Below are positions 42,090 to 58,077 of a DNA stretch of 64,000 nt, one piece after another. The notes beneath the pieces are model-generated. The model was not told the DNA's origin and ran no database searches. It saw nothing but the letters and a program-made list of their open reading frames with translations. This DNA comes from Nitrososphaerota archaeon (GTDB lineage Archaea > Thermoproteota > EX4484-205 > JAAOZP01), in contig JAAOZP010000011.1 in the NCBI GenBank assembly GCA_011605725.1, positions 64,001-128,000 of the forward strand, in the 5' to 3' direction. The position numbers and the translations under genes were made by a program. Position 1 is the stretch's first letter. Every line of letters begins with the position of its first letter.

Positions 42090-43508
42090 TTGACGAGCAC
42101 AGGGCCTGCTTTTAAACCTGGCTACGCTCTCCCAAGTGAGGTTTTGGAGAAGCTCAGGAATCTGCTTGGCGAGAGGTTTTCAACGGGAGATGCTGACCTT
42201 CTCTCCTACAGTCACGATTACTGGCCAATATCTCTGCAATGGGTGCTTAAAGGGAGCTTCCCCTGGGTGCCCAGCGCTGTCGCTTGGCCGGAGAACACGT
42301 TTGAAGTCCAAGAAATCGTTAAGACTGCTTACGGGAACAGTATTCCGGTCTACGCCTTCGGCGGGGGCTCAGGGGTTCTGGGCGGGACTGTTCCCGAGAA
42401 GGGAGGAATAGTTGTAGACTTGAAGAGGATGCGCTCAATCCGGCTCAACGAGGAAGACATGGTTGTCGAGGCCGAGGCTGGGGTTAACGGTTACTACTTG
42501 GAGAAGTATTTGAACAGCAAGGGTTACACGCTCGGCCATATTCCTCAATCCATCTATGTTTCAACCCTGGGAGGGTGGATTGCTACTAAAGCGACTGGAC
42601 AGTTCTCAACCAAGTACGGCGGCATAGAGGATATGGTTCTGGGGCTTGAGGCAGTCCTGCCTTGGGGGAGTGCAGTAACACTGCCGCCACATCCTAGAAC
42701 ATCAACCGGTCCGGATTTGAGAAGACTCTTCATAGGAAGTGAGGGTGTTCTAGGTATAGTTACCAGGGCCTGGCTTAAAACATGCATACTCCCGGAGGAA
42801 AGGGTTCTCCTCTCCTATGTTTCAGAAACCTTTGAAGAGGCTCTTGAATCCGTCAGGAGAATACTCAAGAGGGGTGCTAAGCCAGCTGTAGTGAGGGTTT
42901 ACGACGAGGCTGAGACTAAAAGACACTTCTACATGTTTGAAGAAGCATACGGCAGGATCATGACCGTGATCGTGGTGGAGGGGGACTCTGGAATTGCTGG
43001 GGCTGAGCGCAGGATTGTGGAGGAGGAGTTCAGAGGAAGGATGCTTGGAGAGGAGCCTGTGAAACACTGGCTTGAAACAAGGTTCATGGTTAAAGAGGCT
43101 TCCGAGTTTGCTCCGCTAGGGGTTGTTTTCGACACTATAGAGGTTTCAGTAGGCTGGAGCAGGGCTATGAGCCTCTACCGGAGCCTTGTTGAAGCGGTGC
43201 GGGCTGTTAAGGGGACGCTCTTCGCATCCGCGCATGCTTCACACTTCTATCCTCAGGGCGTCTGCTTCTACTTTACTTTCGCCGGAGTGCCTAGGGGCAA
43301 CCCGGAGAAGTATTACAACGACGTGTGGGAAGCCGCGATGAAGACTACTCTTGAAAACGGCGGGTCGATAAGCCACCACCACGGCGTCGGCAGGCAGAGG
43401 AGAAGCTGGCTTAAGAATGAGCTTGGACCTGCCTTCAACCTTCTCAAAAAGGTTAAGACTGCTCTAGACGATAAGGGTGTGATGAACCCGGGGAACATGG
43501 GGTTGTAA
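42090..43508 (+). CDS. Alkyl-dihydroxyacetonephosphate synthase (AGPS)-like FAD-linked protein, VAO family
   Basis: FGGGSGV.GG, TLGHIPQS...STLGGWIAT..TGQFSTKYGGIED, PRTSTGPD, GSEGVLG, HASHFY....FYF, and the AGPS-type GGSISHHHGVG. Confidence 0.85.
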   Translation: MTSTGPAFKPGYALPSEVLEKLRNLLGERFSTGDADLLSYSHDYWPISLQWVLKGSFPWVPSAVAWPENTFEVQEIVKTAYGNSIPVYAFGGGSGVLGGTVPEKGGIVVDLKRMRSIRLNEEDMVVEAEAGVNGYYLEKYLNSKGYTLGHIPQSIYVSTLGGWIATKATGQFSTKYGGIEDMVLGLEAVLPWGSAVTLPPHPRTSTGPDLRRLFIGSEGVLGIVTRAWLKTCILPEERVLLSYVSETFEEALESVRRILKRGAKPAVVRVYDEAETKRHFYMFEEAYGRIMTVIVVEGDSGIAGAERRIVEEEFRGRMLGEEPVKHWLETRFMVKEASEFAPLGVVFDTIEVSVGWSRAMSLYRSLVEAVRAVKGTLFASAHASHFYPQGVCFYFTFAGVPRGNPEKYYNDVWEAAMKTTLENGGSISHHHGVGRQRRSWLKNELGPAFNLLKKVKTALDDKGVMNPGNMGL

Positions 43509-43509
43509 A

Positions 43510-44655
43510 ATGCCTGGGAAATGGGACTGGCTTAAGGATGAGCTGCGCGCATCCGGATTGGCTGGAGCCACCCCCCTCGTCATCAGGTTTATCAGCGGGA
43601 GGCTACGGGGGCCTGACGACCTTGTGAAGTGTGCCCTATGTCCAAACATGTGTCGCCACGCCTGTCCAGTGGGCATAGTTGACGGGAGGGAGACGACCTC
43701 GCCGGCTGGAAAGACTAGGGCGGCTCTCCTCCTGAGGCAGGGGAGGCTGCAGCCGACGCTGGAGAACGTTTCTCCGCTTTACACCTGCCTCTCGTGCAAC
43801 GCGTGCAGCGTCTGGTGTCCTTTCGGTTTTTCAGTCGCAGACCTTGTTAGGCCAGTTAAGGAGAAGGCTGCCGGCGGCGGAAGCATCTTCAAAGAGTTTA
43901 GAGAGGTTTTTGAAAACCTTGAGAAACACGGGTATGTATATGGAGAGCCTAAGCGTGAGGATTCAGGCTTGCACGGCGACCTGCTCTACTTAAGAGGCTG
44001 CACGCTGAGGGAGAAGCAGCCGGGCGTAGCTGAGAAGGCTGAGCATGTTTTAGAGGAGCTTGGCTACAGGCCTTTCACGATTGACGAGGCGTGCTGCGGC
44101 ATACCTGCCTACAACCTTGGGAACACTAGGCTCTTCAAGAGGGTTGCGGAGAAGCAGGCTGAGAAGATAAACTCTAGCGGCGCTGGAATAATCGTAGCCT
44201 CATGCCCATCCTGCGTATACGCTTACCGAGTCCTCTACCCTAAGCACGGGGTTAAGATTAATGCTGAAGTCAATCATATTGCAGAGTTCCTAGAGGACAG
44301 GCTGAAGGGTTTTAAAGGAGAAGGCAGGGTTGTTATCCACAACCCTTGTAAGCTAGCCTTTGCACTAGGGAAGCCCAAGGCCCTTTACAACACGCTCTCC
44401 AGCGTCGAGGGGCTCACCGTCAGGGAGCCGAGGAGAAGCGGAGGCGAAACATTCTGCTGCGGGTACGGTGGGAGTGCTGTTCCTCGTCTCAACCCTCAGC
44501 TGGCCCGCAGAATAGCCTTGGAGAGGGGGGTTGAGCTTACGGAGGAGGCTGAAACCATTGTCACAGCGTGCCCAACATGCAAGCTAGCTTTAGAGTCAAA
44601 CGGTTTCAAGGTTCTCGACGTAATGGAGCTTCTCCACTCTTTCACCAGTGGTTAA
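43510..44655 (+). CDS. Fe-S protein with two ferredoxin-type clusters and two CCG domains (GlpC/GlcF/HdrD-like)
   Basis: CALCPNMCRHACP, CLSCNACSVWCP, CCGIP...SCPSC, HNPC...CCGYGG...ACPTC. Confidence 0.88.
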   Translation: MPGKWDWLKDELRASGLAGATPLVIRFISGRLRGPDDLVKCALCPNMCRHACPVGIVDGRETTSPAGKTRAALLLRQGRLQPTLENVSPLYTCLSCNACSVWCPFGFSVADLVRPVKEKAAGGGSIFKEFREVFENLEKHGYVYGEPKREDSGLHGDLLYLRGCTLREKQPGVAEKAEHVLEELGYRPFTIDEACCGIPAYNLGNTRLFKRVAEKQAEKINSSGAGIIVASCPSCVYAYRVLYPKHGVKINAEVNHIAEFLEDRLKGFKGEGRVVIHNPCKLAFALGKPKALYNTLSSVEGLTVREPRRSGGETFCCGYGGSAVPRLNPQLARRIALERGVELTEEAETIVTACPTCKLALESNGFKVLDVMELLHSFTSG

Positions 44656-44657
44656 CA

Positions 44658-46415
44658 ATGTTCACGCTAGACGATAAAGTAGCAAGCGTTTTAAAAAAGT
44701 ATCCTTACAATATTTCCTTCAGAGTAAGGGATAACATTGTTTTCCTCCAGGGAGAGGTTGACAGCCACATGGAGTGGGTTGAAATAGGGCTTTCCATAGG
44801 CAGGATAAGAGGGGTTGAGGGGGTTGTGAATAAGATAACGTGGAGAGGCGCCTCAGGGAAGGAGGCTAGAGAGGAGTGGAGAAGAAGGGTTTTCGAAGAA
44901 AAGAGGAACGCTGTGGTCGGAGAGTACGACGTGGTCATAATAGGCGGGGGAGTCGTCGGAGCAGCCCTAGCTAGAGAGCTCTCGAAATACGAGCTTAAAA
45001 CAGCTCTCCTGGAGAAGTCTACGGATATTGCTGCCGGAACCACTAAGGCGAACAACGGCATGATTCACGCGGGCGTGGAGCCCTCCAGGGGTACTCTGAA
45101 AAGAATGCTTAACGTAAGGGGGAACGCTATGTACGGTAAGCTTGCTGAGGAACTGGGTTTCAGGTTTAACCGGCTGGGCAGCCTCTGGCTGGTCACTCCA
45201 AGGACGCTGGCGTCGTACAGGAAGTATCTGCCGGGTCTGCTTTACAACCTGGTGTTGAAACACGTTTTTCCCTGGGTGGTTAAGATTAAAGGCTTGGTGA
45301 ACGGGGTTAGGAGCATTAAAATCATAAGGGGCCGAAGGATTTTCGAGCTCGAGCCGTTCGCAACCAGGGATGCTGTGGCTGCAGTCTACATTCCTTCCAC
45401 GGCTGTAGTCGACCCGTATGAGGTGGCTGTTGCCCTCGCGGAAAACGCTGAGGCTAACGGTGTTGAGATTCATCTAGAGACTGAGGCCGTCGGCTTCATC
45501 AAGGATGGTAGTGTCATCAGGGGAGTCGTAACCAATAAGGGGGTTTTCCTATGCAGATACGTCGTAAACTCCGCAGGGCTTTACGCTGACGAGGTTGCTG
45601 CACTAGCCGGCTCAGAGGAGTACACTATCCACCCGAGGAAAGGAGTACTCCTGGTTTTTCACAGGGACACCGGGGTTTTCACCCGCCACTGTCTGGCTGA
45701 GATCATTCTCCCTCAGGATCCATACACCAAGGGTGGGGGTATAAACCCTACTGTCCACGGGAACGTGCTCTGGGGGCCGACGGCGGTCGAGGTCCCGGAT
45801 AAGGAGGACACGTCCGTTACAAGGGAGGAGATAGAGCATGTCTTGAACAAGTACTCAGGCATAGTTCCCGGGTTTCCGAGGGACAAGGTGATAAGGTATT
45901 TCGCAGGCGTAAGGGCGGCGACATTCACAGAGGACTTCGTCATAAGGCCTGCCAAATGGGTTAGGAACCTCCTACACGTAGCCGGAATACAGTCGCCCGG
46001 GCTCGCCGCCTCACCAGCCATAGCGGAATACGCTGTCGAGAAGCTGAGGGGAATGGGGCTGAGGCTCAAGCCGAAGACGGGCTTCAACCCCAGAAGGAGG
46101 CCAATGCCGAGGGCAGCCGACATGAGCCTTGAGGAGCTTGAGGAGAAGATAAGGATGGACCCCGCGTGGGGCAGGATCGTGTGCACCTGCGAATTCGTCT
46201 CAGAAGCTGAGATCGTGGAGGCTGTTCGAAGAGGCGCTAAGACCCTCGACGCTGTGAAGAGGCGTACTAGGGCAGGGATGGGGGAGTGTCAAGGGAGCTT
46301 CTGCACGCTTGAAACAGCTCTCATCCTGTCTAGGGAGACAGGCGTGCCTTTGGACATGCTTCTTAAGGAGGAGGGTAGGCTGTTCAACGGCTACGTCAGG
46401 GGTGAGCAGCCGTGA
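44658..46415 (+). CDS. FAD-dependent glycerol-3-phosphate dehydrogenase-like protein (GlpA/LhgO family) with an N-terminal BON domain and a C-terminal BFD-like [2Fe-2S] domain
   Basis: BON-like VFLQGEV...GVEGVVNKI; IGGGVVG, TTKANNGMIHAG, PRKG, TKGG, GIQSPGLAASPAIA; IVCTCE...RTRAGMGECQGSFC. ATG at 44658. Confidence 0.85.
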   Translation: MFTLDDKVASVLKKYPYNISFRVRDNIVFLQGEVDSHMEWVEIGLSIGRIRGVEGVVNKITWRGASGKEAREEWRRRVFEEKRNAVVGEYDVVIIGGGVVGAALARELSKYELKTALLEKSTDIAAGTTKANNGMIHAGVEPSRGTLKRMLNVRGNAMYGKLAEELGFRFNRLGSLWLVTPRTLASYRKYLPGLLYNLVLKHVFPWVVKIKGLVNGVRSIKIIRGRRIFELEPFATRDAVAAVYIPSTAVVDPYEVAVALAENAEANGVEIHLETEAVGFIKDGSVIRGVVTNKGVFLCRYVVNSAGLYADEVAALAGSEEYTIHPRKGVLLVFHRDTGVFTRHCLAEIILPQDPYTKGGGINPTVHGNVLWGPTAVEVPDKEDTSVTREEIEHVLNKYSGIVPGFPRDKVIRYFAGVRAATFTEDFVIRPAKWVRNLLHVAGIQSPGLAASPAIAEYAVEKLRGMGLRLKPKTGFNPRRRPMPRAADMSLEELEEKIRMDPAWGRIVCTCEFVSEAEIVEAVRRGAKTLDAVKRRTRAGMGECQGSFCTLETALILSRETGVPLDMLLKEEGRLFNGYVRGEQP

Positions 46416-47653
46416 GGGACGCCACGGTGATAGGAGGGGGGCCTTCAGGTCTGGCTGCAGCCGTATGGCTTGCGGAGAAGGGTTACGACGTAGCGGTCGT
46501 CGAAGTGATGGGGGAGCTCGGCGGGATGTTGACGCAGTGCATTCACGATGGCTTTGGAACAAGGGTTTTCGGAGAAGCCCTTTCGGGGCCAGAGTTTTCA
46601 GAAAGGCTTGTGAAAAAGGCCCGGTTGCTCGGGCTCAGGACGTTTCTGAATACCTACGTGAAGGAGGTTAGGATCGGGAAGGAGTTTAAAGAGGTTGTTG
46701 CAGTCAGCCCGGCGGGGGTTCAGAGGCTTCAGACTAGGGTGATAGTCTACGCGATAGGCTGCAGAGAGAGGAACGGTTTTGAAATAAGGCTTGGCGGAGC
46801 AAGGCCGGCAGGGGTCTACACGGCTGGAATGGTTCAGAGGCTCGTAAACCTGTACGGGGTTCTCCCGGGGAGGAGGATCGTGATAATGGGCGGCGGCGAC
46901 GTCGGCATGATTGTAGCTAGACACCTCCACCTGGAGGGTGTGGAGAGCATCCTGATGGTTTTCCCAGAGGCTGGCTTCGCAGGGCTTCCGAGGAATGTTC
47001 AACAATGCATTCTAGACTTCGGAATCCCGTTCAGGCCCAGGACGGTTGTGAAAAAGGTAATCGGGAAAGAGAGGGTGGAAGGAGTCGTCTTAACCAGGGT
47101 TGATGAAAAGTGGAACCCTGTTGAGGGGACTGAGGAATTCCATGCTTGCGACACTGTTGTCCTCGCCCTAGGCTTAGTGCCCTACACCGGGGAGCTTAAG
47201 CTCGGGGTTAGAATGGATCCTGCAACCAGAGGCCCTGAGGTGAACGAGTTTTTCGAAACCAGTGTGCAAGGGGTTTTCGCCGTGGGGAACCTCGTCCAGG
47301 TTTTCGACTATGTTGACGACGCTTTTGAAACCGCATGCATAGCTGCCAGGGGTGTGGAAAAGTATTTGAACAGCGGGTTGAAGACGGCTCCGATAAGGCT
47401 TTCCCCAGGGGAAAACGTTAGGATGCTTACACCCCAGAGGGTTGAATGGGTTGACGATGCGGACGTGCCGGTGTTCCTGAGACCGGCTGTTGAGAAGGCT
47501 AATGTACGCATAGTGGTGAGGAACAGGGAGGGAAGGGTCCTCGGAGGATTCTTCAAGAGGTATGTTAGGCCTTCTACGCTTGAGAGAATAGAGGTTCCCA
47601 GAAGCATGCTAAGCAACCTGCAGGAGGTTTCGATAGATATTGCAGAGGATTGA
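46412..47653 (+). CDS. NAD(P)/FAD-dependent pyridine nucleotide-disulfide oxidoreductase (G3PDH partner subunit)
   Basis: IGGGPSGLAAA, LGGML.QCIHDGFG, GCRER, RPAGVYTAG, RNVQQC, GVFAVGN; GTGA overlap with the upstream stop. Confidence 0.88.
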   Translation: MRDATVIGGGPSGLAAAVWLAEKGYDVAVVEVMGELGGMLTQCIHDGFGTRVFGEALSGPEFSERLVKKARLLGLRTFLNTYVKEVRIGKEFKEVVAVSPAGVQRLQTRVIVYAIGCRERNGFEIRLGGARPAGVYTAGMVQRLVNLYGVLPGRRIVIMGGGDVGMIVARHLHLEGVESILMVFPEAGFAGLPRNVQQCILDFGIPFRPRTVVKKVIGKERVEGVVLTRVDEKWNPVEGTEEFHACDTVVLALGLVPYTGELKLGVRMDPATRGPEVNEFFETSVQGVFAVGNLVQVFDYVDDAFETACIAARGVEKYLNSGLKTAPIRLSPGENVRMLTPQRVEWVDDADVPVFLRPAVEKANVRIVVRNREGRVLGGFFKRYVRPSTLERIEVPRSMLSNLQEVSIDIAED

Positions 47654-48002
47654 GCTTCTCTGCACCCGGTGCCCCAGGGGCTGCCTTCTAAGGGTTACTG
47701 CAACAGGGAGCAGAGTGGCTGTGGAGGGTAACGAGTGTCCAGTTGGCGAGAAGCACGGGGCCGAGGAGGCTTTGAACCCTAGGCGGACCGTCTCGACAAC
47801 TGTTAGGATAATTGGCGCGAGGCTTCCACGCCTTCCAGTAAGGACTTCTGAGCCGGTGTTGAAGAATAGGGTGAGGGATGTTGTTGCTGCGCTTAAGAAC
47901 ATTGCAGTAGAGGCCCCGGTTAAGGCGGGTCAGGTAATTCTTAAAAACGTTGCTGACACTGGAGTAGACATCATAGCTGAGAGGGATATGGAGAGGGCTT
48001 AG
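47640..48002 (+). CDS. DUF1667 small Cys-rich protein (third G3PDH-associated subunit)
   Basis: CTRCPRGC, GNECPVG, P.RTVSTTV, LPVRTSEP, APVKAG, TGVDIIA. Confidence 0.88.
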   Translation: MQRIELLCTRCPRGCLLRVTATGSRVAVEGNECPVGEKHGAEEALNPRRTVSTTVRIIGARLPRLPVRTSEPVLKNRVRDVVAALKNIAVEAPVKAGQVILKNVADTGVDIIAERDMERA

Positions 48003-48003
48003 C

Positions 48004-49506
48004 ATGAGCTATTTTCTCATACTGGATGTCGGAACCACCAACGTGAAGGCGCATGCTTTTTCGATTAATGGTGAAAACCTGCTTGAACTAGCGGAGAGGC
48101 TTCGGCCAAGCTATCCTAGGCCTGGATGGGTTGAAGAAGACCCGATGGACTTCATCATCAGGATTAGCAGACTCGTCGACATGTTTTTCGAAAAGCTTGG
48201 GAAACCGCTTGGAATAGGCTTGACAAACCAGCGGAGCAGCACCGTCTTATGGAGCAAGAAGTCTGGGGAGCCTCTTTACAACGCGATCACGTGGCAGGAC
48301 ACTAGGACCAAGGATATTGTAGAAGAGTTTTCCTCAAGGTTTCTAGTAAGCATGGGGAGGACACTGGGCAAGGCTTTCAACCTTCTCTCTAAGGCTTTTC
48401 CACCTTTAAAGGAGACAAGCAGGGGAGCCTACTTTGTTACACTTGCATACGTGTCGTTCGGAACAACACATTCCTCCATGCACCTAAGATGGCTCATCGA
48501 CAATGTTCCAGATGCGAGGCGCGCCGTTGAAAACGGTGAGGCTGTTTTCGGAACGATAGATTCATGGATCGCTTGGAACCTTACTGGCAGACATGTAACC
48601 GACTATACTAACGCGAGTGCCACAGGCCTGTTCGACTCTTTCAGCATGAAATGGAGCAGGAACATTTTAAGCATCGTAGGGGTTCCGAGAAGCATTCTTC
48701 CAACAATAGTTCCTAACGATGCTGCAATAGGCAGGGTTAAGGATTACGATGTTCCTCTTCTCACAATGATAGCTGACCAGCAGGCCTCACTTTACATGGC
48801 GGGTGTTTCCAAGGGTGTTGTGAAGATGACGAGCGGCACCGGAACATTCATAGATATGAATGTTGGGGAGAAGTGTATGGCTGGAGCGAGAGGACTCTAC
48901 CCGTTGATTGCACTCGCCACCAAGCGTAGAAACCTTTACCTGCTGGAGGGGAATGTTCTAACCTCAGGCTCAACGCTAGACTGGCTTATTGAAGTAGGGC
49001 TTATGAAAGACTATTCTGAGATACGTGAAGCCTTCGAGAAAACGGGGGAGGGCGGAATAGTGTTCATCCCCGCTCTCTCCGGGCTCGGAACACCCTATGT
49101 GAAGCCTGATGCAACAGGCATGATCCTTGGGATCACGAGGGGAACCAGGAGGGAAGACCTGATCCGAGGGGCTGTTGAGGGCGTGGCTATGCGCTGCGTG
49201 GAGATACTCGAGTATCTTGAGAAAACAACTGGAATAAGGGTACAGCGCGTAGTAGCCGACGGCGGGCTCTCTAAGAGCGACGACTTCCTCCGGACTGTTG
49301 CAAACTATTCTTCAAAGCTTGTCTTGAGACCAGTACACCTGAATGGCTCCGCCTACGGGACCTACATGCTGTGTAAGAACATATTGCTCGGAAAGGATCC
49401 TGTGGAAGCATGGGAAGAGCCTGCTGTCGAGAAGGCTTTCACCCCGGTTGAACCCAGGGGGGAGCTTATGGCACGCTGGACCAGAGCTTTGAGGAGGCTT
49501 CTTTAA
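48004..49506 (+). CDS. FGGY-family glycerol kinase-like protein resembling the eukaryotic GK5 subfamily
   Basis: LDVGTT, PGWVE, TNQRSS, ITWQD.R, FGTIDSW, TD.TNAS.TG, ADQQAS, K.TSGTG, GLYPLI, DGG; amphipathic insert after WQD. Confidence 0.85.
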   Translation: MSYFLILDVGTTNVKAHAFSINGENLLELAERLRPSYPRPGWVEEDPMDFIIRISRLVDMFFEKLGKPLGIGLTNQRSSTVLWSKKSGEPLYNAITWQDTRTKDIVEEFSSRFLVSMGRTLGKAFNLLSKAFPPLKETSRGAYFVTLAYVSFGTTHSSMHLRWLIDNVPDARRAVENGEAVFGTIDSWIAWNLTGRHVTDYTNASATGLFDSFSMKWSRNILSIVGVPRSILPTIVPNDAAIGRVKDYDVPLLTMIADQQASLYMAGVSKGVVKMTSGTGTFIDMNVGEKCMAGARGLYPLIALATKRRNLYLLEGNVLTSGSTLDWLIEVGLMKDYSEIREAFEKTGEGGIVFIPALSGLGTPYVKPDATGMILGITRGTRREDLIRGAVEGVAMRCVEILEYLEKTTGIRVQRVVADGGLSKSDDFLRTVANYSSKLVLRPVHLNGSAYGTYMLCKNILLGKDPVEAWEEPAVEKAFTPVEPRGELMARWTRALRRLL

Positions 49507-52059: not shown

Positions 52060-55000
52060 ATGATGATATTAAACACATGCCGCATATTCGTTAGGCGTTT
52101 TGGAAAAACATGGGCAGGAGTACTGCTCGTAAGCATGATGCTCCTAGTCGTGCTCTCAATGTTGCCAACATCCCTGCATACTAGTGCAGTACCCCCCAGC
52201 AGACAACCCCCCAGTATTACGATTAATACTGTTACTCAGGACGGTAATCTTTTTACCGTCAAAGGGGTTGCTAGCTTCAGCGTCCCTGCTGGCCAGACGA
52301 GTCAATACCATGTTCAAGTGGTCTGGGAGCATAACGGTAGTGTTGTCTTTCAAAACGATTATGCAGAGATCCCCCCGTTGAAAGACCTGGGTGAAGAAAG
52401 ATACGAGTATGATTTTGCTGATTCTAGAACGCTGAATACTGGCGGGGAATGGACAATCAGGGCTAGACTCTACCATGTGAAACCTCCCGGGAACGATAAT
52501 CAGGCAGATGCTTCTACGAAGATCATTTTCACAACTTTTATGGTGACCATTACCACTAAGCCGGAAGGATTAAAAATAGCTGTGGACGGGGAAGTCTACA
52601 CGTCTCCGCAAACCTTTGCTTGGCTAAACGGCTCTAAGCACACTATCGGCACCTTCTCCCCGCAGTCTGAAGGAGACACGATTTACACGTGGGTTTCTTG
52701 GAGCGACGGCGGTGAAATAAGCCACATGGTGACAGCAGTAGGCGACGCCATCTACACAGCATTCTTCAAGAAGCAGTATCTTGTGTGCTTCAACCAAACG
52801 GGTCTTGACAGTTCTGCAACCGGGGTTATTGTAACGGTTAATGGTTCATCTAAAAGCTATGACAAACTGCCTTTCAGCAACTGGTATGATGAGAACGATT
52901 GGATCAGCTATAGTTATGCTGAAACAGTGAATAGCTCTCAAACAGGGAAAAGGTTCAAGCTTAACTATGTCACTGGACCAGCCTCGCCTTTCCAAGTCTC
53001 TTCATTCACGCTAGTGATTGGCAGCTACACGCCTCAATACCTTCTGACTGTTGAAACCGAGCCTGACGGCTTAACAATTATTCCTGGTGGCGGATGGTAT
53101 GATGCAAACTCGTTAATCATTTTAACAGCGCCGGGAACAATACCGGTTTCACAAGGAATCCAATACAGGTTCAGCCACTGGAGCATAGACGGGGTTTCTC
53201 AAGGCATGGGGGTCAACCCTATTACGGTGAGCATGAACACGACTCATACTGCAACAGCCCACTATGTTCTTCAATACTATCTGACGGTGGAATCTCCATA
53301 CGGGGCACCAAGCCCGGGCAGCGGATGGTTTGACGCTGGAACAAGTATAACAGCATCAGTCACCTCACCCTGGCCTCCTGACTCTGCAGACACCCGGAGT
53401 GTTTGCACAGGATGGGTAGGCACAGGAAGTGCCCCGTCCTCTGGAACCAATACTGAAGTGTCTTTCACTATTAATGCGCCCTCAAGCATAACCTGGAGCT
53501 GGAAAACCCAGTACCGCGTCGCTTTCATCCAGACAGGTGTTGACGTCGACTTCACCGGGGTAGTGATGACTATTGACGGTATCGGCCACGGTAGGGAGGG
53601 TCACGCCGCCTGGTATGATGTTGGAGCAAGCATCGACTTCAACTTCACGGGACTCCTGGTTGTTGCAGTCAACCAGAAACGATACGTGTTGACTAGCGTC
53701 AACGCTTCCACACCCTTGATTGTTACAGGCCCGCTTACCGTCATGGGCAGCTATAGGACACAGTATTACTTGACGATGATCACGAGCCACGGTACAGTAA
53801 GCCCCGGCGACGGGTGGTTTGACGCTGGTTCAACCGTGGAGATAACCGCTGCCCTGCCTCCGGTTGTCCAGGGTGAACGCTATGTTTGGATGGGATGGAC
53901 AGGGACAGGAAGCGGGTCATACACCGGTATGCAGAACCCGGCTCAAATAACCGTTAACAGCCCGATTAAAGAGTCAGCCTCATGGAAGCATCAATACTAT
54001 CTGGCTGTGAACACGCCATACGGCACTGCTGGCGGCGAAGACTGGTATGATGAGGGTTCAGCCGCTTACGCTACAGTAGCCCCGCTAACGGTTGACGGGC
54101 CGGATGGCGTAAGGTATGTCTTTTCACACTGGAGTGGAGATGCTTCAGGGACTGCTTCAACTTCAGACCCGATTACGATGAATGCGCCGAAGACGGCGAT
54201 TGCCATCTGGAAGACTCAGTACCGAGTTGTGTTCAACCAGAACGGTTTAGATGAAACAGCTGTTGGAACCGTTGTCACTGTCAACGGCTCAGAACATATG
54301 CAGAGCAACCTGCCTTTCACAACATGGGTGGACAGCGGTGCTTCAATCAACTATGGCTTTGAAAGCATTGTTTTAACCAGCGACCCCGGTAAGAGGTTTA
54401 GGCTAAACAATGTGACTGGGCCTGAAACACCGTTTACTGTTACTGGTCCCGTAACGGTTGCTGGAAACTATGTCACTCAATGGCGGGTCGTGTTCACTGT
54501 AGATCCACCCGGTTCAGGAACAACCGTGCCCTCTGGAGCCGGCTGGTATGACGCAGGGATACGGTTCAGCATATCTGCTGAGGCTAATCCTGGGTTCTCG
54601 TTTTCAGAGTGGACTGTGAACACCTCATCCATAAATATCGCCGACACTTCGTCGCAGCAGACCAGTGTGACAGTAAATGGTCAAGGAACCGTCACAGCAT
54701 GCTTCACCATTTTCTACACCGTCTCTTTCACTCAAATAGGCTTGCCAACCGGGGTTGAGTGGAGCGTTACTTTCAACGGGGTGACGAAATCCTCTACGTC
54801 GAACACTATTGTTTTCAGCAATGTTCAAACCGGAGACTACGCTTGGAGCACGCTAACGCTTATTCAATTAGATTCTGGAACAAGATACTTAGCGTCACCC
54901 TCATTCGGAACACTAAGCGTGCCGTCGCAGCTGACGCAAACGATAAGCTACACTGCCCAGTATAGGGTTGAAATATCATGGTCTGGGCTTGATGCTGAAG

Positions 55001-58000
55001 CCAGCGGCGGGAAAGTGGTCATCATCACGGTAGGCGGCACGGTTTTCAGCAGGAATGTGGAAGACGCTTTCTACGAGGAGTGGGTTAATGCTGGAGCAAC
55101 AGTAAGCTATGCTTTCGAGGAAACCTTGTCTACAGCAATGTCGGGGAAAAGGTTTAGCCTCCACCATGTATCAGGCACTTCGGCAAGCTTCTCCAACGAC
55201 TTCGGTCCCATTTCAGGACCAGTATATGAAACAGCATACTATAAAGCTCAATACTATATTACTGTAATCAGTGACTACGGCAGCCCAACTTCCTCAACAT
55301 GGGTTGACGAGGGGACCAGTTTCACCGCCTCGGTGACAAGCCCGGCTGAAACCATGGTCAACCAGCACCAATGGGTCTGCACAGGCTTCAAGGTAGATGA
55401 GAATCCTGTTCAAGAGGGTTCGAGCTACACGTTTGTAAACGTGCAGACGCCGCACACCATAGTGTTTTACTGGAAGAAACAGTTCTGGATCCAGGTTAAC
55501 AGCAACCATGGTTCTCCAACACCCTCCCAATGGGTGGATCAGGGTGGAAGCCTTATGGTGAGCGTAACCTCTCCAACCGACGAGTCTGAAGGAGTAAGGT
55601 ATAGGTGTAAAGGCTACACTATAGATAGCAACCCGCCTGTTGAAGACGGGAGCACAAGCCACTTTTTCAGTGACGTTCAGAGTGCTCACACGATTACTTT
55701 CAACTGGATCGCCCAGTACAAGGTTACTTTCTACACTAATCCTGTTCAGGGGACTGTAACGGTTCGGGGAGTAGTTAAGAATAATGGTGAAAGCGAGTTT
55801 TACGATGATGGGGAATCAATCCCGATTACTGCGAACCCTCCCTCTGGCTACTGGTTCTCACGCTGGACAGTAACCGGCGGAGTCGCTGTAGACAACTATG
55901 GGAGTCAAACGGCAATTATGATGGTGAGCAGACCAGGCAGTCTTTCAGCAATATTCGTCATAAACGCTGTCTCAATAACAATCACTTCCAGCCCTGTTAC
56001 TGGAGTAGGCTTCATCAAGGTTGACGGCGTGCCCTACAATACTCCGGTAACTTTCACATGGGTAACTGGGACGACCCACGTGCTGGAGGCGGTTTCAATC
56101 GTGCCTGGGGCAACAGGCATTAGGTATGTATGGAAAAGCTGGAGTGACAGCGGGGCTCAGATGCATGTCTACACTGTCCCCAGCATGTCTGAGACAGTGA
56201 CAGCATGCTTCTCAACCCAGTATTATCTGACGGTGATTTCACCGCACGATACTCCAGGAGGCTCAGGATGGTATGAGGAGGGCTCAATCGCGTATGCAAC
56301 GCTTGAGACCAGAATTGTTGTCGAGAACGGTGTGCAATACGTGTTTACAGGCTGGAGTGGAGACGCTTCCGGAACAAGCCTTACGAGTAACCCGATAATG
56401 ATGAACGGTCCGAAAACCGCTGTGGCGAACTGGGCAACTTCAGCATACACGGTGACTCTCGACAAGAGCCCGAGGCAAGGAGTGATCACAGTTGACGGTG
56501 TTGTTTACACGAGTCTTCCGGTAGTGCTCAACTGGGTTCCAGGATCTTCTCACACGGTTATGGTTCCCAGTATTGAAGAGGCGGGAGGCACAAGGTATGT
56601 TTTCAGAGAATGGTCAGACGGCTCGACACAGGCTAGTAGAATAATCGTCGCTGAGAAAACTGGAGCAGTCTATGTCGCCTACTACAACGTGCAGCATAGG
56701 CTAACGGTCTACTCTGACCACGGGCTGACCACGGGCTCAGGATGGTATGACGAGGGTGTTGAAGCAGTTTTCTCCGTAACACCAACCATAGTGAGAGACG
56801 AGACAGAGGGAGTGGAGTACACGTTTAAAGGCTGGGTTGGAAGCGGGGCTGGAAAACACTACACCGGGCCGGATAATCCTGCGCGAGTCATAATGACTGG
56901 GCCTGTTGAGGAGAAAGCAGAATGGGAGCCTTCAATGTACTGTTTAAAAGTTGTCAGCGAGTATGGAGACCCGTATGGAAGCGGCTGGTATCCTGTAAAC
57001 TCTGAAGCACGGTTCGGAGTAAACACGCCTGTTAACCATGGTAACGGCACGATGAGAGTCTTCTTAAACTGGTTTGGAGACATAAGTCTCAGGGAGCCTG
57101 TTGGAACCCTGATTATGGTTAGGCCGTATACTGTAATAGCCAACTGGGACACTCAATACTTAGTGGTTTACAATACGACTGCTCCAAACGGTGTTTTACT
57201 ATCTGTGCCAGGAGTGCCTCAAACATTGGCACCGGGCTTCAACGTTTACGCGCAGTATTACTCAGCAGGAAGCAGGGTTAAAATCGGGCCGGCGCCCGGA
57301 ACCGTGTACGCGACTGAGGATACAAGGTATTGTTTCGAAGGCTGGATGATAAATGGGGAACCGGTCTCTTCCGATTCGAACCTAGACTTTACTGTGAATA
57401 AGCCTCTGCACATATCCATGACATATGGAACCGAGATACTCTTGACTGTAAACGTGGTAGGGGCGAATCGCAACTTCACTGTGAAACTTACGGTGGAGAA
57501 GAGCCCAGCCTACGTGCTTGACATCACGCCCTTATCTCCCTTTAAAGAATGGGTGAAGAAAGACACTGGCTTAACCCTCACCGTTTCCAGCCCGAACAAG
57601 ATAGGCCGTGGAGAGTGGGCTGTTTTCAGAGAATGGTCTGGAGACGCTCAGGGAAGTCAGAGAATAATCTCGTTGAAAGCTTCGAGACCAATAACGGTGA
57701 ACGCAGTGTTCTTCGCGGTCAACCCGGTTGCAGAATCAATACCCTACTCGCTGTTAACGGGCATAGTGTCGATAGTTCTTTCACGTTTAATACGGAGAAA
57801 ACGTGCAGAAGAACCCTTGGAACACCGGAGCTATTCGCCAACCCTGGGAATAGTGTCGCTGACTGCTGTGTTAACCGTATCAATAATAGTGAGCATCAGC
57901 GTAGCCATGGGCTACGGGATAAACGTTGCTGAGCTTCCAGACTTAGAAAACTGGGCCGTATTGTTCACCGGGGTTGAGGCAATCTTCTTCCTGGTCGCGA

Positions 58001-58077
58001 CACTGCTTGTTACAAGGCGTTCTTACCCGAGGAAGATGGAGATCCCAGTCATCTATCCGAACCCCTACGGGATTTAA
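52060..58077 (+). CDS. Giant (2005 aa) cell-surface repeat protein with about 20 beta-sandwich modules and three C-terminal TM helices
   Basis: Signal peptide; recurring QY.LTV.S.YG...G.GW(Y/F)D.G...F..WSGD units (InlB-B/Flg_new-like), F.Q.GLD units and one thermopsin-type YTVSFTQIGLP.G.EWSV unit; hydrophobic C-terminus. Confidence 0.85.
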   Translation: MMILNTCRIFVRRFGKTWAGVLLVSMMLLVVLSMLPTSLHTSAVPPSRQPPSITINTVTQDGNLFTVKGVASFSVPAGQTSQYHVQVVWEHNGSVVFQNDYAEIPPLKDLGEERYEYDFADSRTLNTGGEWTIRARLYHVKPPGNDNQADASTKIIFTTFMVTITTKPEGLKIAVDGEVYTSPQTFAWLNGSKHTIGTFSPQSEGDTIYTWVSWSDGGEISHMVTAVGDAIYTAFFKKQYLVCFNQTGLDSSATGVIVTVNGSSKSYDKLPFSNWYDENDWISYSYAETVNSSQTGKRFKLNYVTGPASPFQVSSFTLVIGSYTPQYLLTVETEPDGLTIIPGGGWYDANSLIILTAPGTIPVSQGIQYRFSHWSIDGVSQGMGVNPITVSMNTTHTATAHYVLQYYLTVESPYGAPSPGSGWFDAGTSITASVTSPWPPDSADTRSVCTGWVGTGSAPSSGTNTEVSFTINAPSSITWSWKTQYRVAFIQTGVDVDFTGVVMTIDGIGHGREGHAAWYDVGASIDFNFTGLLVVAVNQKRYVLTSVNASTPLIVTGPLTVMGSYRTQYYLTMITSHGTVSPGDGWFDAGSTVEITAALPPVVQGERYVWMGWTGTGSGSYTGMQNPAQITVNSPIKESASWKHQYYLAVNTPYGTAGGEDWYDEGSAAYATVAPLTVDGPDGVRYVFSHWSGDASGTASTSDPITMNAPKTAIAIWKTQYRVVFNQNGLDETAVGTVVTVNGSEHMQSNLPFTTWVDSGASINYGFESIVLTSDPGKRFRLNNVTGPETPFTVTGPVTVAGNYVTQWRVVFTVDPPGSGTTVPSGAGWYDAGIRFSISAEANPGFSFSEWTVNTSSINIADTSSQQTSVTVNGQGTVTACFTIFYTVSFTQIGLPTGVEWSVTFNGVTKSSTSNTIVFSNVQTGDYAWSTLTLIQLDSGTRYLASPSFGTLSVPSQLTQTISYTAQYRVEISWSGLDAEASGGKVVIITVGGTVFSRNVEDAFYEEWVNAGATVSYAFEETLSTAMSGKRFSLHHVSGTSASFSNDFGPISGPVYETAYYKAQYYITVISDYGSPTSSTWVDEGTSFTASVTSPAETMVNQHQWVCTGFKVDENPVQEGSSYTFVNVQTPHTIVFYWKKQFWIQVNSNHGSPTPSQWVDQGGSLMVSVTSPTDESEGVRYRCKGYTIDSNPPVEDGSTSHFFSDVQSAHTITFNWIAQYKVTFYTNPVQGTVTVRGVVKNNGESEFYDDGESIPITANPPSGYWFSRWTVTGGVAVDNYGSQTAIMMVSRPGSLSAIFVINAVSITITSSPVTGVGFIKVDGVPYNTPVTFTWVTGTTHVLEAVSIVPGATGIRYVWKSWSDSGAQMHVYTVPSMSETVTACFSTQYYLTVISPHDTPGGSGWYEEGSIAYATLETRIVVENGVQYVFTGWSGDASGTSLTSNPIMMNGPKTAVANWATSAYTVTLDKSPRQGVITVDGVVYTSLPVVLNWVPGSSHTVMVPSIEEAGGTRYVFREWSDGSTQASRIIVAEKTGAVYVAYYNVQHRLTVYSDHGLTTGSGWYDEGVEAVFSVTPTIVRDETEGVEYTFKGWVGSGAGKHYTGPDNPARVIMTGPVEEKAEWEPSMYCLKVVSEYGDPYGSGWYPVNSEARFGVNTPVNHGNGTMRVFLNWFGDISLREPVGTLIMVRPYTVIANWDTQYLVVYNTTAPNGVLLSVPGVPQTLAPGFNVYAQYYSAGSRVKIGPAPGTVYATEDTRYCFEGWMINGEPVSSDSNLDFTVNKPLHISMTYGTEILLTVNVVGANRNFTVKLTVEKSPAYVLDITPLSPFKEWVKKDTGLTLTVSSPNKIGRGEWAVFREWSGDAQGSQRIISLKASRPITVNAVFFAVNPVAESIPYSLLTGIVSIVLSRLIRRKRAEEPLEHRSYSPTLGIVSLTAVLTVSIIVSISVAMGYGINVAELPDLENWAVLFTGVEAIFFLVATLLVTRRSYPRKMEIPVIYPNPYGI

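Follow-up and report, generated by a model that had tools for sequence, protein, structure and literature searches.

This report concerns a kinase gene, here called P0001, that closes a compact six-gene module in a 64,000-nucleotide stretch of a Nitrososphaerota archaeon contig (JAAOZP010000011.1); the whole of this stretch is referred to as the window, and positions are counted from its first letter. Judged from its sequence, P0001 is a catalytically intact FGGY kinase that belongs to a GK5-like superclade and not to the canonical glycerol kinases (GlpK), and it represents a new, uncharacterised variant inside a known kinase family. Regarding its substrate, we propose, with a little less than even confidence, that P0001 phosphorylates a substituted glycerol, most likely an ether-linked, lipid-like monoalkylglycerol. 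A wider proposal, which we hold to be rather unlikely, is that the module performs the first oxygen-independent cleavage or salvage of glyceryl ether lipids, by means of a GK5-type kinase, a membrane-tethered and electron-bifurcating Fng paralog, and an AGPS-type flavoenzyme with an iron-sulfur (Fe-S) partner, and that the members of the GK5-like superclade, animal GK5 included, would act on substituted (lipidic) glycerols and not on free glycerol. The parts of the kinase gene on which the argument depends are the following.

48004 to 49506, plus strand: the GK5-like FGGY kinase P0001, 500 amino acids, last gene of the module, with the Pfam domains FGGY_N and FGGY_C.
48235 to 48237, plus strand: Ser78, aligned with the position of GlpK Glu84 (NQRSS against NQRET).
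48310 to 48462, plus strand: the GK5-type insert region, residues 103-153, between the pocket residue Trp97 and the Tyr135 position, 26 amino acids longer than in GlpK.
48466 to 48471, plus strand: Thr155-His156, aligned with the position of GlpK Tyr135-Phe136 (TTHSS against PYFS).

The gene is an open frame with an ATG start, and its product matches the two Pfam domains with E-values of 4.7e-45 (FGGY_N) and 1.3e-24 (FGGY_C). The best NCBIfam model is that of GlpK, TIGR01311, whose curated cut-off is 590.35 bits and on which P0001 scores 345.9, and the same search returned no GK5 model, while in the ESM Atlas a cluster named 'Glycerol kinase 5', to be taken as a lead only, is among the three nearest to P0001. 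By sequence comparison, the closest solved structures are glycerol kinases, and the Thermus enzyme 2dpn aligns from end to end (E=7e-84), with one long extra segment of P0001 following WQDTR. The AlphaFold2 model has a mean predicted local accuracy (pLDDT) of 94.6 and a predicted template-modelling score (pTM) of 0.93; its best Foldseek matches are all GlpKs, at template-modelling (TM) scores of 0.83-0.88 and about 30% identity, with no GK5-type structure among them. In its two-domain actin-like ATPase fold, as in the intact DxGTT, catalytic Asp, GTG and DGG elements, P0001 agrees with the FGGY family, and residues D8, G10, D258, G280 and G420, which serve catalysis or ATP binding, are invariant in an alignment of 68 sequences. 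NCBI names the archaeal clade to which P0001 belongs only 'FGGY family carbohydrate kinase'.

By analogy with animal GK5, for which an SREBP-binding role has been proposed, P0001 might be imagined as a non-catalytic or regulatory protein, a view that we consider highly improbable. It could draw on three paralogs from metagenome-assembled genomes (MAGs) of Thermofilaceae (P0060, P0065 and P0069), which belong to a sub-branch of the archaeal clade, have a shortened insert, read SHRGS or NHRGS, show GTG changed to GTW or GSW, and may be inactive or altered in function. Against it, P0001 and almost all of its relatives keep every catalytic and ATP-binding motif, and the gene is set in an operon of enzymes.

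The signature motifs were compared in an alignment of about 265 relatives of P0001. A previous inspection of this DNA, the sequence-only reading, had listed ITWQDTR, a long segment FSSRF...AYVSF, TTHSS, a K-MTSGTGTFIDMNVG motif and GLYPLI, and all five were found as described, at residues 95-101, 109-152 (nucleotides 48328-48459), 154-158, 274-289 and 297-302, respectively. Canonical GlpKs (TIGR01311; structures 2dpn, 1gla and 6k76), which share with P0001 the two-domain FGGY fold, the catalytic Asp, the ATP motifs and about 30-36% identity, read NQRET, D[PA]YFS, GDQQ, NTYGTGCF..MN and GLLTT[IV] in bacteria, archaea and eukaryotes alike, with 38 residues separating two conserved Trp. In contrast, P0001 and about 80 archaeal homologs (43-83% identity) that keep the insert and the substitutions read NQRS[ST], GT.HSS, ADQQ,.T.GTG.FID.N and G[LI]YP[LM][VI], and 64 residues, 26 more than in GlpK, lie between the two Trp; in P0001 itself, MTSGTG stands for NTYGTG and GLYPL for GLLTT, and the extra residues form a basic helical insert. 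Since they are conserved in about 80 archaeal homologs, and since the insert is modelled as confident helices, the insert and the substitutions are not due to chance.

The substitutions fall in the substrate pocket. In GlpK, the specificity residues are Arg83, Glu84, Tyr135, Asp245 and Phe270 (PMC3245297), Trp103 packs against the glycerol, and Glu84 is a glycerol-binding residue (PMC3245297, PMC2680290). Three of the five are retained in P0001, as Arg77, Asp258 and Phe282, together with the pocket Trp97 (equivalent to GlpK Trp103) and the equivalent of Gln246. Nearly every GlpK examined, over the range from bacteria to eukaryotes, has the other two, Glu84 and Tyr135, and both are missing here. 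The opinion of the sequence-only reading that this is no canonical GlpK was borne out on both counts, namely a TIGR01311 score of 346 bits against 590 and three of five signature residues.

Both ends of the insert sit on residues lining the glycerol pocket, because it is flanked by Trp97 on one side and by the Tyr135 position on the other. In the AlphaFold2 model it consists of helices at residues 103-110, 113-131, 134-137 and 139-149, with pLDDT of about 90. The region measures 42-52 amino acids in GK5-like proteins against 24-29 in GlpK, it is about 45% hydrophobic across the GK5-like proteins, and its net charge is +3 in P0001 and mostly +3 to +12 in the GK5-like relatives, against mostly -3 to +1 in GlpK. 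An amphipathic segment without counterpart in GlpK had been announced for this place; the length, net charge and hydrophobic content do set it apart from GlpK, whereas its amphipathicity is not exceptional. The insert helix has a hydrophobic moment (muH) of 0.54, which other surface helices of P0001 equal or exceed, and amphipathicity was rejected as decisive evidence for membrane binding.

The kinship with animal GK5 was first read from motifs. The references consisted of named GK5 sequences from Phlebotomus (P0202), Anopheles (P0256), Leptinotarsa (P0267) and a Spirochaetota 'glycerol kinase 5' (P0186), with an ichthyosporean (Chromosphaera) protein, P0265, grouped in the same set. The named sequences carry a 16-residue insert at the same alignment site as the 26-residue insert of P0001, lack both Glu84 and PYFS, and show.T[LM]GTG.F.N.N and GLYPL[VI]. 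Taken as a definition of GK5, an insert after WQD.R combined with the loss of Glu84 and PYFS describes P0001 as well. Metazoan GK5 and the Asgard and Spirochaetota proteins named 'glycerol kinase 5' thus have in common with P0001 the insert site, the two losses,.T.GTG.F...N and GLYP; they differ from it in reading [ASG]DQ[SAM] where P0001 reads ADQQ, in the length of the insert, and in that no linkage of GK5 proper to AGPS-like genes was seen in the loci examined.

Trees built after removal of the insert columns place the archaeal clade within a GK5-like superclade. Its support by the Shimodaira-Hasegawa-like approximate likelihood ratio test (SH-aLRT) is 98 in a tree of 85 rows and again 98 in a tree to which Asgard and Spirochaete sequences were added; a careful search with 53 rows gave an ultrafast bootstrap (UFBoot) of 87 and an SH-aLRT of 96. 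A constrained tree that unites the archaeal clade with canonical GlpK was rejected by the approximately unbiased (AU) test (delta lnL 44.6, p-AU 0.0034), a test that was run after the first tree had already been seen and whose constraint was the outcome that the sequence-only reading had itself named as refuting. The maximum-likelihood comparison that this reading had called for therefore sets P0001 outside canonical GlpK, with the superclade recovered in three trees. Inside the wider superclade, P0001 lies on a branch separate from the clade of Metazoa, Asgard and Spirochaete GK5, and on this phylogeny the P0001 clade appears as a sister subfamily of GK5, not as its ortholog. Consequently, the description of P0001 as a GK5-type kinase stands as regards motifs, membership in the superclade and the rejected grouping with GlpK, and is to be qualified as regards orthology.

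On a minor point of the same phylogeny, a number of Asgard proteins (P0379, P0385, P0386, P0392, P0396, P0399 and P0408; locus L089) bear the NCBI name 'glycerol kinase 5', with labels of Hodarchaeales, Lokiarchaeota, Thorarchaeota and 'Promethearchaeota' and about 53% identity to Spirochaete GK5. In a quick tree, the Asgard and Spirochaete GK5 sequences formed a group sister to metazoan and holozoan GK5, a placement of possible relevance to where the animal gene came from.

Upstream of the kinase, the five other genes of the module are these.

42090 to 43508, plus strand: an AGPS-like FAD enzyme of 472 amino acids, first gene of the module (Pfam FAD_binding_4 and FAD-oxidase_C).
43510 to 44655, plus strand: an Fe-S protein with a 4Fe-4S dicluster and two CCG domains, GlcF/GlpC/HdrD-like (Pfam Fer4_8 and CCG).
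44658 to 46415, plus strand: an FngA paralog with DAO and BFD [2Fe-2S] domains and an N-terminal BON domain at nucleotides 44667-44846 (Pfam).
46412 to 47653, plus strand: an FngB paralog, a Pyr_redox_2 flavoprotein by Pfam, 43% identical to the FngB of contig C1 of the same genome.
47640 to 48002, plus strand: an FngC paralog with DUF1667 by Pfam, 39% identical to the FngC of contig C1.

All six genes are tightly packed on the plus strand, with gaps or overlaps between +2 and -14 nucleotides. For the FngA paralog, the GTG start at 44568 chosen by the caller of open reading frames (ORFs) would overlap the CCG gene by 88 nucleotides, whereas the N-termini of the orthologs match the ATG at 44658, which gives a protein of 585 amino acids that starts just ahead of the BON domain. 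A BON domain is present in all ten N-termini of module FngA proteins tested, eight above the Pfam cut-off and two just below it, and it is putatively lipid-binding. The window protein also has an extra hydrophobic and basic stretch of about 22 residues at 45180-45300 (approximately residues 205-245 of the 615-residue ORF), where the canonical FngA of the same genome, 36% identical to it and devoid of both BON domain and insert, has a short acidic helix.

The kinase thus adjoins the DAO/BFD, Pyr_redox_2 and DUF1667 subunits in the manner of a GlpK-FngABC operon. In Pyrococcus furiosus, FngABC is a ferredoxin- and NAD-dependent, electron-bifurcating glycerol-3-phosphate (G3P) oxidoreductase, acting between G3P and dihydroxyacetone phosphate (DHAP), and its genes follow a canonical GlpK (PF2003-PF2007; PMC13689815); GlpK therefore has an FngABC-type G3P oxidoreductase for neighbour, as P0001 does, and the same four components recur in the G3P dehydrogenase complex of Thermococcus kodakarensis. 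Compared with the P. furiosus operon, the module adds the AGPS-like and CCG genes, a GK5-like kinase replaces GlpK, and FngA gains the BON domain and the hydrophobic insert.

As regards the first gene, its best solved relative is guinea-pig AGPS (4bby, 7.6e-57), far ahead of D-lactate dehydrogenase (1e-34), and on this score its assignment as a GlcD or D-lactate dehydrogenase was judged unlikely. With eukaryotic AGPS (4bby, 2uuu) it shares the FAD_binding_4 and FAD-oxidase_C fold, and alignment to 4bby shows that the equivalents of Arg419, Tyr578 and the His615-617 (HHH) loop are conserved. The motifs SHHHG[IVM]G and C.YFTF occur in 18 of 18 module orthologs, in which the catalytic Arg, the Tyr and the HHH loop are accordingly kept. 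The eukaryotic enzyme carries an N-terminal domain and neither has nor needs an Fe-S partner, while the module protein begins to align only at residue 180 of 4bby (472 against 658 amino acids), lacks the domain, and is paired with a GlcF-like Fe-S protein whose gene lies directly 3' of it in every locus compared. That an AGPS-like gene neighbours the kinase, as had been remarked from the sequence alone, is hence firm, both for the catalytic residues and for a linkage conserved across archaeal phyla.

The six-gene module is found in Thermococcus sp. EP1, in MAGs of Bathyarchaeia, Thermoplasmatota and Theionarchaea, and in other archaea, its nearest relatives (83-87% identity to the window) being in MAGs labelled Nezhaarchaeota and Brockarchaeota. 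In 15 of the 16 archaeal loci with enough upstream DNA, the AGPS-like gene stands beside the kinase, the exception being L046, and across 19 archaeal loci no conserved neighbour other than the six genes was seen. Reduced forms also exist: in a Methanolliviera locus and in the archaeal contig L014 the module is down to the AGPS-like, CCG and kinase genes, and in L014 an NAD-type G3P dehydrogenase lies near this trio and Fng is absent. Within the superclade, the module goes with two or three deep branches, namely the P0001 type, a second type that reads TQR[SA]T and CT[NH]GTG, and the L014 type.

The genome of the window holds, in addition, a canonical operon in the order GlpK-FngA-FngB-FngC on contig C1 (C1:75819-80520, equal to L013:9808-14542), with a GlpK of 525 amino acids that scores 633 bits on TIGR01311, an FngA of 503 amino acids without BON domain, and an FngC with DUF1667. 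On account of this operon, the window module can be read as a diverged second, paralogous copy with added parts. A canonical GlpK coexists with a P0001-type kinase in all four genomes checked (this one, Thermococcus sp. EP1, and the Nezhaarchaeota and Brockarchaeota MAGs included), and by gene content P0001 is non-redundant with GlpK in its genome.

Among bacteria, the homologs from Actinomycetota (Geothermincolia, Solincola and Anoxymicrobiaceae; loci L021-L023, L026-L028, L034 and L039 among them) nest within the second module-associated type and lack conserved neighbours, no gene being common to more than six of the 22 loci, a pattern that suggests that archaea passed the gene to bacteria and that the module was lost in the process. 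In Spirochaetia, the GK5 gene lies between a HAD gene and a gene for a PlsC-type acyltransferase (L016, L017 and L088). The operon of Sediminispirochaeta bajacaliforniensis (L088:2696-7291) contains a DAGK-type lipid kinase, a PlsC-type acyltransferase, HAD, GK5 and a second PlsC-type acyltransferase, and a gene for a patatin-like phospholipase lies nearby. Its gene content points to glycerolipid metabolism as the theme of this operon, which would fit a glycerol kinase or a monoradylglycerol kinase. The gene contexts of GK5 in Leptospira and Asgard archaea were uninformative, and a search for longer fused forms that might disclose the substrate gave only two eukaryotic GlpK fusions.

When these observations are put together, the proposed pathway can be formulated as follows. 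P0001 would phosphorylate a glycerol substituted at one end, most likely a monoalkylglycerol, on the primary hydroxyl left free at the other, within a pocket that keeps the residues expected to hold the backbone and to activate the hydroxyl (Arg77, Trp97, Asp258 and Phe282). In solved GlpKs, the Glu and Tyr that P0001 has lost provide side chains that form hydrogen bonds with the hydroxyls of glycerol; the catalytic Asp remains, and a basic, hydrophobic helical hairpin would have grown from the rim of the pocket. The resulting alkyl-glycerol-phosphate would be oxidised at C2 to alkyl-DHAP by the BON-tagged Fng paralog, and in the last step the ether-linked group of alkyl-DHAP would be exchanged or released by the AGPS-like enzyme, so that the sum of the steps would amount to an oxygen-independent cleavage or salvage of glyceryl ethers. 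No substrate class other than alkyl-DHAP is known for an active site of the AGPS type. To oxidise the carbon beside an ether so as to labilise it would be a sensible step in chemical terms, one that AGPS chemistry exploits, and the order of events (phosphorylation, oxidation beside the ether, covalent flavin chemistry of the AGPS type) is chemically coherent. Further hints of a lipid or an interface may be seen in the BON domain, the hydrophobic and basic insert of FngA, the basic and hydrophobic insert of the kinase anchored on pocket residues, and the lipid operon of the Spirochaetes.

Several points weigh against a lipidic substrate. FGGY kinases close their two domains over small polar substrates, and we know of none that accepts a lipid. 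The CCG Fe-S partner implies a net electron transfer, which the redox-neutral chemistry of AGPS does not need. Neither a lipase nor a transporter nor an acyltransferase occurs in the module across the 19 archaeal loci, and the Spirochaete operon would suit just as well a plain glycerol kinase that feeds the acyltransferases. A complete Bathyarchaeota chromosome and a Theionarchaea MAG hold no GlpK-like gene besides the module kinase, which is of the second type and scores 525-589 bits on TIGR01311; in these genomes it may double as the glycerol kinase. The second-type kinases at G003:C1:1628257-1629798 (L033) and G004:C147:10397-11947 (L025) score 525-589 bits on TIGR01311, under 590, and because these scores nearly reach the cut-off and the genes are the sole GlpK-like ones, an annotation as ordinary GlpK could result even though Glu84 and Tyr135 are lost in them. 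A conserved His or Gln beside the Tyr135 position could also take over from Tyr135. Finally, according to a passage in PMC6473107 that cites Zhang 2017, GK5 has glycerol kinase activity in vitro, which means that the loss of Glu84 and Tyr135 does not abolish the use of glycerol.

This report on GK5 also favours a simpler explanation that we regard as a substantial, if minority, possibility, namely that P0001 is an isozyme of plain glycerol kinase, which would make sn-glycerol-3-phosphate for the Fng paralog to convert into DHAP, with the AGPS-like/CCG pair acting on DHAP-derived or unrelated substrates and the GK5-type changes tuning regulation, kinetics or localisation. A GlpK fold with all catalytic residues, the retained equivalents of Arg83, Trp103, Asp245, Gln246 and Phe270, the FngABC homologs next door (as for canonical GlpK in Pyrococcus, PMC13689815), the two genomes in which the module kinase is the sole GlpK-like gene, and the in vitro activity on glycerol mentioned in PMC6473107 all agree with it. 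It is more difficult to reconcile with the four genomes that carry a canonical GlpK as well, in that of the window within a complete GlpK-FngABC operon, or with the loss of two residues kept in nearly all GlpKs, and it does not account for the BON domain, the inserts or the almost obligate linkage to an enzyme whose AGPS active site is intact.

A further explanation, in our view improbable, is that the kinase serves a different small compound, which is not a lipid but ends in a glycerol-like group, for instance a glyceryl glycoside, a glyceryl ether solute, a C3-C4 polyol or a ketose, by way of a keto-phosphate intermediate. FGGY subfamilies differ mainly at the specificity positions that are changed in P0001 (PMC3245297), and since the AGPS-like protein is without the N-terminal domain of about 180 amino acids, there is no requirement for it to act on a long-chain lipid. 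An interface or a hydrophobic ligand is what the BON domain and the basic, hydrophobic inserts suggest instead, and neither a glycosidase nor a solute transporter is conserved near the module kinase in the 19 archaeal loci.

Returning to the monoalkylglycerol proposal, part of its background has changed. The sequence-only reading took alkylglycerol kinase (EC 2.7.1.93) for an activity without a gene, a view that is outdated, as a preprint (10.1101/2025.09.10.675409, 2025-26) assigns it to the kinase domain of ACAD10 and reports that ACAD10-null worms and mice cannot salvage alkylglycerols. This preprint makes no mention of GK5 or of FGGY kinases, and it relates the ACAD10 kinase domain to LvaA. 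The animal 1-O-alkylglycerol kinase thus performs the very reaction proposed for P0001, the phosphorylation of monoalkylglycerol. We take the ACAD10 domain to belong to a kinase family other than FGGY, and an alkylglycerol kinase activity of P0001, if it has one, would be an invention independent of ACAD10.

A literature search found no paper on archaeal GK5-like kinases, archaeal AGPS-like enzymes or the six-gene module, and the library searched offered no link between GK5 and mono-acyl- or alkylglycerol, or between AGPS and archaea. Taken in its entirety, the module may be novel. The only enzyme known to us that cleaves alkylglycerols is AGMO, which needs O2, and the module bears on the anaerobic degradation and recycling of archaeal and bacterial ether lipids. 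A preprint on the evolution of AGPS found no plasmalogen pathway in Archaea, and little is known on the turnover of archaeal membrane lipids (PMC13689815). Moreover, the physiological substrate of animal GK5 and its link to skin lipid homeostasis are poorly defined, and the module supplies prokaryotic, thermostable relatives of this protein for work on structure and substrates. As the module spans Thermococci to Bathyarchaeia, a small set of recombinant enzymes would be enough to test the question directly, and if the kinase proves to be merely a glycerol kinase isozyme, the finding would be a new archaeal FGGY subfamily together with a warning on annotation.

Lastly, an ORF of 2005 amino acids lies downstream of the module, at 52060-58077 of the window on the plus strand.

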